Position numbers and translations under genes: made by a program. A stretch of 62,053 bases of DNA, filler included, from Stramenopiles sp. TOSAG23-6 (taxonomy: Eukaryota): the NCBI GenBank assembly GCA_900128565.1. It is 20 parts of 20 records of this genome, joined end to end, with 100 filler letters (N's around TTAATTAATTAA, not from the genome) between each part and the next. Parts side by side here need not be neighbours in the genome. Positions count along the whole stretch, not along the records: positions 1 to 3,025 come from LT637695.1; 19 more parts are not named here. One strand, given 5' to 3'. Numbering within the stretch: position 1 is the first letter of the stretch; each line of letters opens with the position of its first letter. Positions 53 to 888 of the stretch are shown piece after piece. The notes beneath the pieces were generated by a model that had not been told where the DNA came from, did no database searches, and saw only the letters and a program-made list of their open reading frames with translations.

Positions 53-888
53 GGCTCTTTTTGTGTAGTCAATGTGTCATCAATATTATCTCAGGAACTA
101 TTTCGTTCATTTCACTATACTCAAAATTATTTTCAGTCATGTCGTGCATGTTGCTACTTGCGGATGCTTTCACAGGTTGGACACTGTTGTGTGATCTTGT
201 GGAAAGTATACAAAATAATTCTCCTACAACTGGTGGTTTACCTTGGATGGAATATGTATGTTTTATTTTTTTTCAAATTCGAATTTTTTTTTCGTACGAA
301 ATTTTGTACCTAATGATTTTTTTCAAATATTTTTCCAAAATACATAGTCTCGTAAAACGTCGTTGGTTATATATTTTTGTGTGTCTTTGTAGCGCATTAT
401 ATTCTTTATTTTCAAGACTGGGGATAATTTTGCTTTTTCTTTACATAGGTTGTTGCTATCTACCATATTTGTTACTCCCTCCATATGGTTTGTTTTTTAT
501 ATGGAAAATTGATTGTCTCTGGTGTTTAATCTGTATCTTTCAAGTCTCCGTTGGAATTAAACGCTTTGAAGAATCACGTAAACAAATTATTCGTGCGGTA
601 CTATTTGAAGTATACGGTGAAAGTGAAATAAATATGTACGATAGTTATAACGTAAAAAGGATGAAAAATATAGATATAGAGAATGATGGGCTTGATGAAG
701 ATAAACGACAGGCAAGAATTGAATGTAACACTAATTATAGGTTACGATTAATACAAAATATACTTTTTTTTAACATCAACTTATCAGGTTGGATACCCAG
801 TGAAGAAAAAACAAATTTTCAACTTTGTATTGATTTATTTGACTTGCATTGTTTGAGACTTCAAAGAATGCAATATAACATAGAGTAA
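53..888 (+). CDS. Hypothetical multi-pass membrane protein, 3' part (exons 53-255, 346-888)
   Basis: Hydrophobic ORF. Family intron ends at 52 and another spans 256-345; joining gives GLPWMEY|SLVKRRWLY. Stop at 888. Confidence 0.7.
256..345 (+). other. Non-canonical GT-AT intron (90 nt)
   Basis: AT|GTATGTTTT...TTCGTACGAAATTTTGTACCTAAT...CCAAAATACAT|AGT. Using the AG at 346-347 instead shifts frame into a TAG. Confidence 0.85.

Follow-up and report, generated by a model that had tools for sequence, protein, structure and literature searches.

Background

The closest described system is that of Fritillaria borealis and F. pellucida where, in the accessible parts of the reports, most introns lack a terminal AG and AT is the commonest 3' end (34% and 44%, respectively; PMC13326754/PMC11282704). 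These AT ends were verified on RNA, and a YAY triplet located 5' of the donor mirrors the intron end. The introns are described there as originating from a MITE with target duplication, in genomes that keep a minority of canonical introns and have lost the minor spliceosome. Their donors are mainly AG, two U1 versions have identical 5' ends, and the proposed adaptation combines a duplication of U2AF with m6A changes (PMC13326754/PMC11282704).

Introners provide a second term of comparison. In element IE1 of Micromonas the donor lies within the element, the acceptor AG is co-opted and the duplication is 3 bp long, whereas family 5 of Chrysochromulina takes its acceptor from a target duplication of 4 bp (accessible parts of PMC11282704/PMC9860276). 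Locus-specific matching of ends serves there as a test for target duplication (PMC9860276), and the introner curation of PMC12130899, in its accessible part, accepts AG and AC 3' sites alone. A third case is the deletion of prp18 in Saccharomyces, in which cryptic HAU and BG 3' splice sites are used, CAU and UAU being the best non-G ends. According to the accessible text, such CAU and UAU ends need a strong U-tract and a pair between G+1 and U-1 was proposed, a last base C or A being disfavoured through a proposed clash with G+1 (PMC10711555).

The family of introns described here, from the protist Stramenopiles sp. TOSAG23-6, shares with Fritillaria, as far as described there, AT ends, an apparently transposon-like origin and the persistence of canonical introns. 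It differs from it by its GT donors, by consisting of one uniform family with branch and terminal boxes, and by a changed U1, in an unrelated lineage. Micromonas IE1 and Chrysochromulina family 5, in the parts accessible, resemble it in their short repeated introns, internal donor, acceptor derived from a duplicated target and locus-specific end matching, but the duplication found here is 2 bp long and usually AT. The CAU and UAU ends, the U-tract and the U or G in last position are also those seen upon prp18 deletion; in that case they are minor errors of a mutant, whereas the present genome apparently uses them as its normal route. Elsewhere, AT ends, transposon origin and duplication-supplied acceptors are already known. 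No report of a protist family combining GT donors, AT ends and a re-coded U1 was found by a search outside of which lay most subscription papers and introner supplements; the word 'intron' is absent from PMC8163842.

How the spliceosome chooses among neighbouring three-base 3' sites is an open question. The present family offers 164 natural substrates, in which a non-AG end would beat a nearby AG while AG introns of the same genes are still spliced, and this separates positioning from identity reading and makes both open to testing. The Fritillaria outcome appears to have been repeated in an unrelated lineage by another route, involving a changed U1 sequence where Fritillaria has an unchanged U1 and a duplicated U2AF. 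Gene prediction based on AG, as well as introner surveys restricted to AG and AC, would miss or mis-splice such genes.

Genome sample and general features of the family

The window, i.e. the whole stretch of 62,053 nucleotides that was analysed, is composed of 20 contigs of ~3 kb, with N spacers between them. Its DNA is eukaryotic and rich in AT, and uses the standard code. Positions 3126-24868 hold one 3-kb contig in seven near-identical copies, which is assembly redundancy. The family catalogue was established from 718 kb (~3%) sampled from the 21 Mb assembly. Copies were called by their donor, branch box and 13-base 3' box, the last two intron bases being excluded from the call. Six repeat copies of one window contig were dropped before counting, as were locus L018 (its motif counts equal those of L017), overlapping loci, rRNA and snRNA loci, duplicate flanks and candidates under the motif thresholds. 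Two introns of the window discussed below, at 27658..27761 (site 2) and 26788-26897, fell under these thresholds and stand outside the counts.

The catalogue comprised 164 copies of one ~100-nt GT-donor intron family (median length 100 nt) located at unrelated gene sites, and one family copy was found in another assembly (L143). Reading frames could be called upstream and downstream independently for 98 of these introns, 66 being left with no frame call. Donors started with GT in 155 of the 164 copies, a figure in which other donors are undercounted, GT being favoured by the donor model. Donors of the GC, GA or GG kind were observed in copies at 61671-61759 of the window (minus strand) and in L089, L099 and L074. 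The donor logo, GTAYGTTT, is not of the U12 type. The branch box, TACCTAAC, is conserved and has one C more than the yeast box; a terminal T-tract/TYCA box lies near the 3' end. A short predicted hairpin directly 5' of the branch box was seen at window 294-309 and in other copies.

We consider it probable that the terminal box tells the major spliceosome where to make the 3' cut, and that either U or G is accepted as last base. The introns would be of the major-spliceosome (U2) type and would descend from one repeated introner-like element of ~100 nt, carrying the GT donor, the TACCTAAC branch box and the terminal T-tract/TYCA box. Their last two bases would be a duplicate of the insertion site, mostly AT. 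The terminal box would set the 3' cut nine bases after the C of TYCA, with no scanning for AG, and the ligation step would tolerate U or G in last position, so that an xT end placed by the box would win over an AG located 2-7 nt away. Dominance of AT may have resulted from insertion together with later selection favouring AT, and the 5' end of U1 would have been re-coded to pair with CAU|GUACGUUU. Removal by the spliceosome and a transposon origin of the family are what its features point to; the box as positioning signal and the pairing of G+1 with U-1 likewise belong to what we infer.

The two junctions with a nearby AG

The first junction (site 1) lies at the start of the window, in the following context:

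1..52, plus strand: 3' part of an upstream family intron, with branch box at 12-19 and AT end at 51-52; the contig starts inside this intron
53..255, plus strand: exon ending with AT (254-255), with two stop-free frames, the AT-compatible one having the better codon score
256..345, plus strand: intron of site 1 (90 nt, GT..AT), with donor GTATGTTT and free of in-frame stops
307-314 and 331-345, plus strand: family motifs of this intron, namely branch box and 3' box with AT
346..347, plus strand: adjacent AG, predicted unused, forming the first two bases of the next exon
346..888, plus strand: last exon, predicted to encode a hydrophobic protein for which no homolog was found

The sequence-only reading had proposed that the AT end is required at this site even though an AG lies next to it, on the grounds that only AT maintains the reading frame. 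Joining 255 to 346 does keep the frame open to 888, the AG at 346-347 directly adjoining the AT at 344-345, and joining 255 to 348 from the same upstream frame runs into a TAG. However, exon 53-255 is also stop-free in a second frame, which is in register with the AG, and the intron being itself stop-free in frame, its retention would keep an ORF from 19 to 888. The AT at 254-255 repeats the AT at 344-345, hence reads at site 1 cannot separate GT-AT from AT-AC. As homology searches and Pfam gave no homolog of the site 1 protein, the case for this site draws on its frame, on the codon score and on the pattern of the family, and is weaker than first stated.

The second junction (site 2) is located in a gene of the SLC12 family that hosts several members of the intron family:

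25462..25580, plus strand: family intron in the SLC12 gene, GT..AT
25708..25862, plus strand: family intron with an internal tandem duplication, GT..AT, upstream exon ending in CT, homology peak at the AT
25943..26043, plus strand: family intron, GT..AT, in which a TAG located 12 nt after the branch A is skipped
26788..26897, plus strand: family intron, GT..TT, upstream exon ending in TT, bridged by RNA contigs
26991..27099, plus strand: family intron, GT..AT, bridged by RNA contigs
27658..27761, plus strand: site 2 intron, 104 nt, GT..AT, branch box at 27720-27727, upstream exon ending in GT
27754..27756, plus strand: CAG that is skipped, lying 5 nt before the AT end (27760-27761)
27762..27911, plus strand: last exon of the SLC12-family gene, with homology and with RNA contig cover at 27784-27911

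For the intron at 25708..25862 the automatic end call at 25847 was rejected as a miscall, homology peaking at the AT. At site 2, as had been read before, use of the CAG at 27754-27756 leads to YMKLL followed by a stop, and use of the AT at 27760-27761 to EAALIVTNLP. Against the one SLC12 homolog found, the AT join aligned gap-free with a score of 72 and the CAG join scored 46 and ran into its stop. The site 2 intron has lost its T-tract and kept TTCA at the usual spacing. The AT end of this junction is backed by homology, and it is probable that AT is the end used at both 255/346 and 27657/27762.

It is conceivable that the family is real and that these two sites are nevertheless processed in another way, site 1 through the AG in its second frame, through retention or as a chimera, and site 2 through the canonical pair GT 27656/CAG 27756. 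The open second frame of exon 53-255, the 90-nt intron that is stop-free in frame, the missing homolog at site 1 and the fact that the canonical pair at site 2 is in frame all speak for this explanation. So does the assembly, which elsewhere joins unrelated exons via the family repeat: L111 and L112 share one gamma-tubulin exon and intron start joined to differing downstream exons, and are assembly chimeras through the repeated intron. We nonetheless hold it to be decidedly unlikely. The codon score of exon 53-255 prefers the AT frame by 13 bits (+3.3 versus -9.8 bits for the AG frame), and three other non-AG copies with an AG directly after their end, as at site 1, are open at the box-placed end alone. 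At site 2 the canonical pair scored 53 and needed a gap, compared with 72 for the gap-free AT join, and the donor at 27658 pairs better with U1. Intron lengths, moreover, show no excess of multiples of three (58/52/54).

RNA contigs across the SLC12 gene

Contigs from RNA libraries of four runs were mapped on window 24969-27985, a region that covers site 2 and not site 1. Two junctions were bridged by contigs from two of the four runs, which came from different studies and were both poly(A) libraries. The joint 26987>27097 corresponds, after sliding, to the GT..AT intron 26991-27099 (X3 record 13, X5 record 28), and the joint 26785>26896, slidable by 3, to the GT..TT intron 26788-26897. None of the equivalent registers ends in AG. 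Both introns have no AG beside their end, and they accordingly document non-AG ends and not competition with AG. At two places the bridging contigs agree with each other and differ from the assembly. Of the 15 joints listed, 13 lie between repeat copies and were disregarded. At site 2, one run gave RNA cover on both sides and no bridge, which is no evidence either way. Most of the RNA cover on this stretch comes from family copies located elsewhere, the family being abundant in RNA libraries. Small shares of one stretch were present in six seawater RNA runs.

These bridges are strong, not final, support for the removal of two sister introns, as a strain free of the insertion would yield the same joined form and contigs alone cannot show transcription. 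The elements might then be polymorphic DNA insertions, or be removed by pairing of their ends, with joined forms stemming from insertion-free strains. Besides this property of the contigs and the abundance of family copies in RNA libraries, such an origin could draw on the ends of the element, which form a short terminal inverted repeat (~4 bases inside the element, six or more being the criterion for introners) predicted to pair. It appears very improbable in view of the remaining data. RNA folding through end pairing was not above that of shuffled sequences in any of the four copies folded (z -0.2 to -0.9), and with two thirds of the copies left in place, conserved genes that are intact would go out of frame. 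Donor, branch box and matching U1 are spliceosomal hallmarks, and in one contig from a poly(A) library (X5 record 28) two neighbouring introns are both missing.

Position of the 3' ends

The distribution of ends among the 164 copies was AT 131 (80%), TT 13, GT 7, AG 6, AA 4, AC 2 and GC 1, at least one of the AA ends being a miscall (the 25708 intron). The last base was T in 151 of the 164 and the last three were CAT in 116, a spectrum that would fit the acceptors used by yeast lacking Prp18. The notion that AT is required is not supported by this count, 33 of 164 ends being other than AT, nor by the GT..TT intron bridged by RNA contigs. A family intron with a CAG end was observed on the minus strand at window 28198-28290, though its upstream exon ends in AT.

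The end placed by the box restored the reading frame in 91 of the 98 introns with independent frame calls, the remaining 7 calls not fitting it. When the AG or YAG nearest after the branch site was taken instead, the frame fitted in 25-33 of 96-98 introns, which is the chance level, and six frame-called introns skip AGs located 28-43 nt past the branch A, all of them out of frame. Homology peaked at the predicted end in 3 of 3 SLC12 and 3 of 4 HSP70 introns tested, the fourth HSP70 intron having a poor reference. Use of a TAG at +4 and of an AAG lying in frame at +6 was excluded by it in two HSP70 introns. The earlier suggestion that the acceptor is not found by scanning for AG is thus supported by the failure of first-AG models, by the skipped AGs and by homology, which excludes the adjacent AG both at site 2 and in the two HSP70 introns.

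That the 3' site is instead measured was also proposed, and is supported with a shifted origin: the measure would start at the T-tract box and not at the branch site. The distance from branch to end ranged from 33 to 46 nt (10th-90th percentiles), a spread that rules out a fixed ruler from the branch site and implies that any ruler starts at the terminal box. It should be kept in mind that the box itself defined the ends, so that its position was independently tested through frame, homology and the two RNA joints alone; degenerate copies were also used to test the box, with too much noise for the result to be counted. Selection against nearby AGs was considered and rejected, because the depletion of AG after acceptors was weak and not AG-specific (68 versus 86, p 0.04 uncorrected, AA being depleted more).

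Canonical GTAAGT..AG introns were found side by side with a family intron in a CCT and an HSP70 gene, and also in HSP60; AG ends, which six family copies have as well, are therefore still usable. Such canonical introns occur at L092 (minus strand, 1346-1506), at L103 (minus strand, 1372-1518) and in L097/L098. One canonical end in HSP60 is spaced from a TTTTC exactly as a family end is from its box.

Taken as a whole, the sequence-only reading is partly supported, in that AT is preferred and not required, and AG is bypassed. AT is most likely the commonest product of an acceptor that is chosen by position and tolerates U or G.

Copying of exon ends and register of the introns

Among the 33 non-AT ends, the last two intron bases were identical to the upstream exon end in 19, compared with 2.2 expected. 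Considered by position, matches amounted to 5/13 (0.5 expected) at -1, 16/21 (2.6 expected) at -2 and 8/20 (4.7 expected) at -3, and matching was confined to two positions. This copying looks like the target-site duplication of introners and may represent a duplication of 2 bp. Matched non-AT pairs were TT, GT or AG in 18 cases and the complements of these in 1, which suggests that splicing filters insertions for a final T or AG. An AT intron end followed a non-AT exon end in 26 of 131 copies, and a non-AT intron end followed an AT exon end in 6 of 111. Since the intron copy is usually the AT one in mismatched copies (26 versus 6), AT appears to be favoured. An excess of exon-copy changes at wobble positions was not significant (9/31 versus 8/60, p 0.09).

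Owing to the AT repeat, the GT..AT register and the one located two bases upstream are indistinguishable in 105 of the 164 copies. The true introns might then run from AT to AC in the style of the minor spliceosome, and no AT acceptor would exist. U12-type introns include AT-AC and rare non-canonical ends, and the present family resembles them in its non-AG ends, its CCTAAC-like branch box and its weak dependence on scanning. Support for this register also comes from a gamma-tubulin junction (L111 minus strand, second intron) where the GT register gives a Lys and the upstream register reads better, Met being presumably usual at that position; a two-residue insertion lies just upstream of this junction. 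Even so, we regard an AT..AC register as extremely unlikely. Among 23 mismatch cases it introduces stop codons in 2, and it removes from gamma-tubulin a Phe which we take to be invariant, and the upstream exon of site 2 ends in GT. U1 and U6 pair with the introns in the GT register. Compared with U12-type introns, the donor GTAYGTTT is of another type and the end lies 33-46 nt from the branch; U11, U12 and U6atac were not found in the assembly, which is that of an incomplete genome.

Components of the splicing machinery

Compared with the Rfam consensus, the 5' end of U1 (L004 349-359) is altered at positions 2, 5 and 9, and each change matches the family donor and the T upstream of it, so that this U1 fits CAU|GUACGUUU. 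It forms on average 9.2 Watson-Crick pairs per family donor, compared with 7.0 for the consensus U1. Nucleotides 9-11 read AUG here and CUG in the consensus, C9 being replaced by A. No second version of U1 was found in the assembly, which contains two identical copies alone. U2, U4 and the loop of U5 look canonical, as does the ACAGAGA of U6. In L004 9-645 (G000:C1146), the genes for U5, U2, U1 and U4 form a head-to-tail series on the same strand with gaps of 2, 23 and 5 nt, an arrangement resembling that of one transcript.

Among proteins, Prp8 (L137) displayed 12 substitutions that none of 19 representative homologs has; two of these lie near human positions 1246-1251 and another at 1451. 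Its alpha-finger is unchanged, and retains the glutamine which in yeast is in contact with the -3 base (PMC12707134, accessible part). Genes for Slu7, a Prp4-like protein and a U2AF65-like protein were also found. At the Slu7 locus (L138) the piece for the C-terminus lies upstream in inverted orientation and the frame is broken, which gives the locus the look of an amplification chimera. The single U2AF65-like gene (L144 11-1975, minus strand, G000:C433) is divergent, both of its central RRMs matching RRM1. U2AF65 usually carries a tryptophan motif before its RRMs; none was evident at that place in this gene. U2AF35 was not located in this incomplete assembly. A search of the assembly for Prp18 was blank and carries no weight, the searches for SF1, Cactin and LUC7 being blank likewise.

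These components could be taken to mean that the acceptor is read by its sequence, YAG having been switched to YAT and AG being disfavoured at family introns, which is the sequence-only reading in its strong form. The reader would be either nucleotides 9-11 of U1 or a changed small subunit of U2AF, recognising CAU at the intron end. The 80% of AT ends, the mismatched copies with AT on the intron side (26/131 versus 6/111), the change of C9 to A in U1 and the U2AF65-like gene with two RRM1-type domains agree with such a switch. A 1992 fission-yeast paper reportedly deals, by its title, with U1 changes that suppress 3' site mutations. Nevertheless a sequence reader seems unlikely: ends in TT, GT and AG (26 of 164) track the exon end, the GT..TT junction is bridged by RNA, and canonical GT-AG introns occur in the same genes. 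AG is barely depleted after acceptors (68 versus 86), and the donor already explains the change in U1.

A broader version holds that, in a free-living protist, AU has replaced AG as the rule followed by the major spliceosome at both junctions. An introner invasion would have led nucleotides 9-11 of U1 to read CAU both at the upstream exon end and at the intron 3' end, and loss of a Prp18-type fidelity would have let G+1 pair with U-1. We find this version doubtful; if true, it would constitute a natural genome-wide test of the contact between U1 and the 3' site and of Prp18 as a gatekeeper of YAG, two ideas that have so far rested on yeast mutants.

Other features of the genome and window

SSU rRNA is present in the genome, putatively that of a marine stramenopile. 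Within the window, Pfam domains included RMI1 at 984-2312, Bud31 at 38499-39671 and a piece of a polyketide synthase (KR, DH and carrier domain) at 40469-43567.
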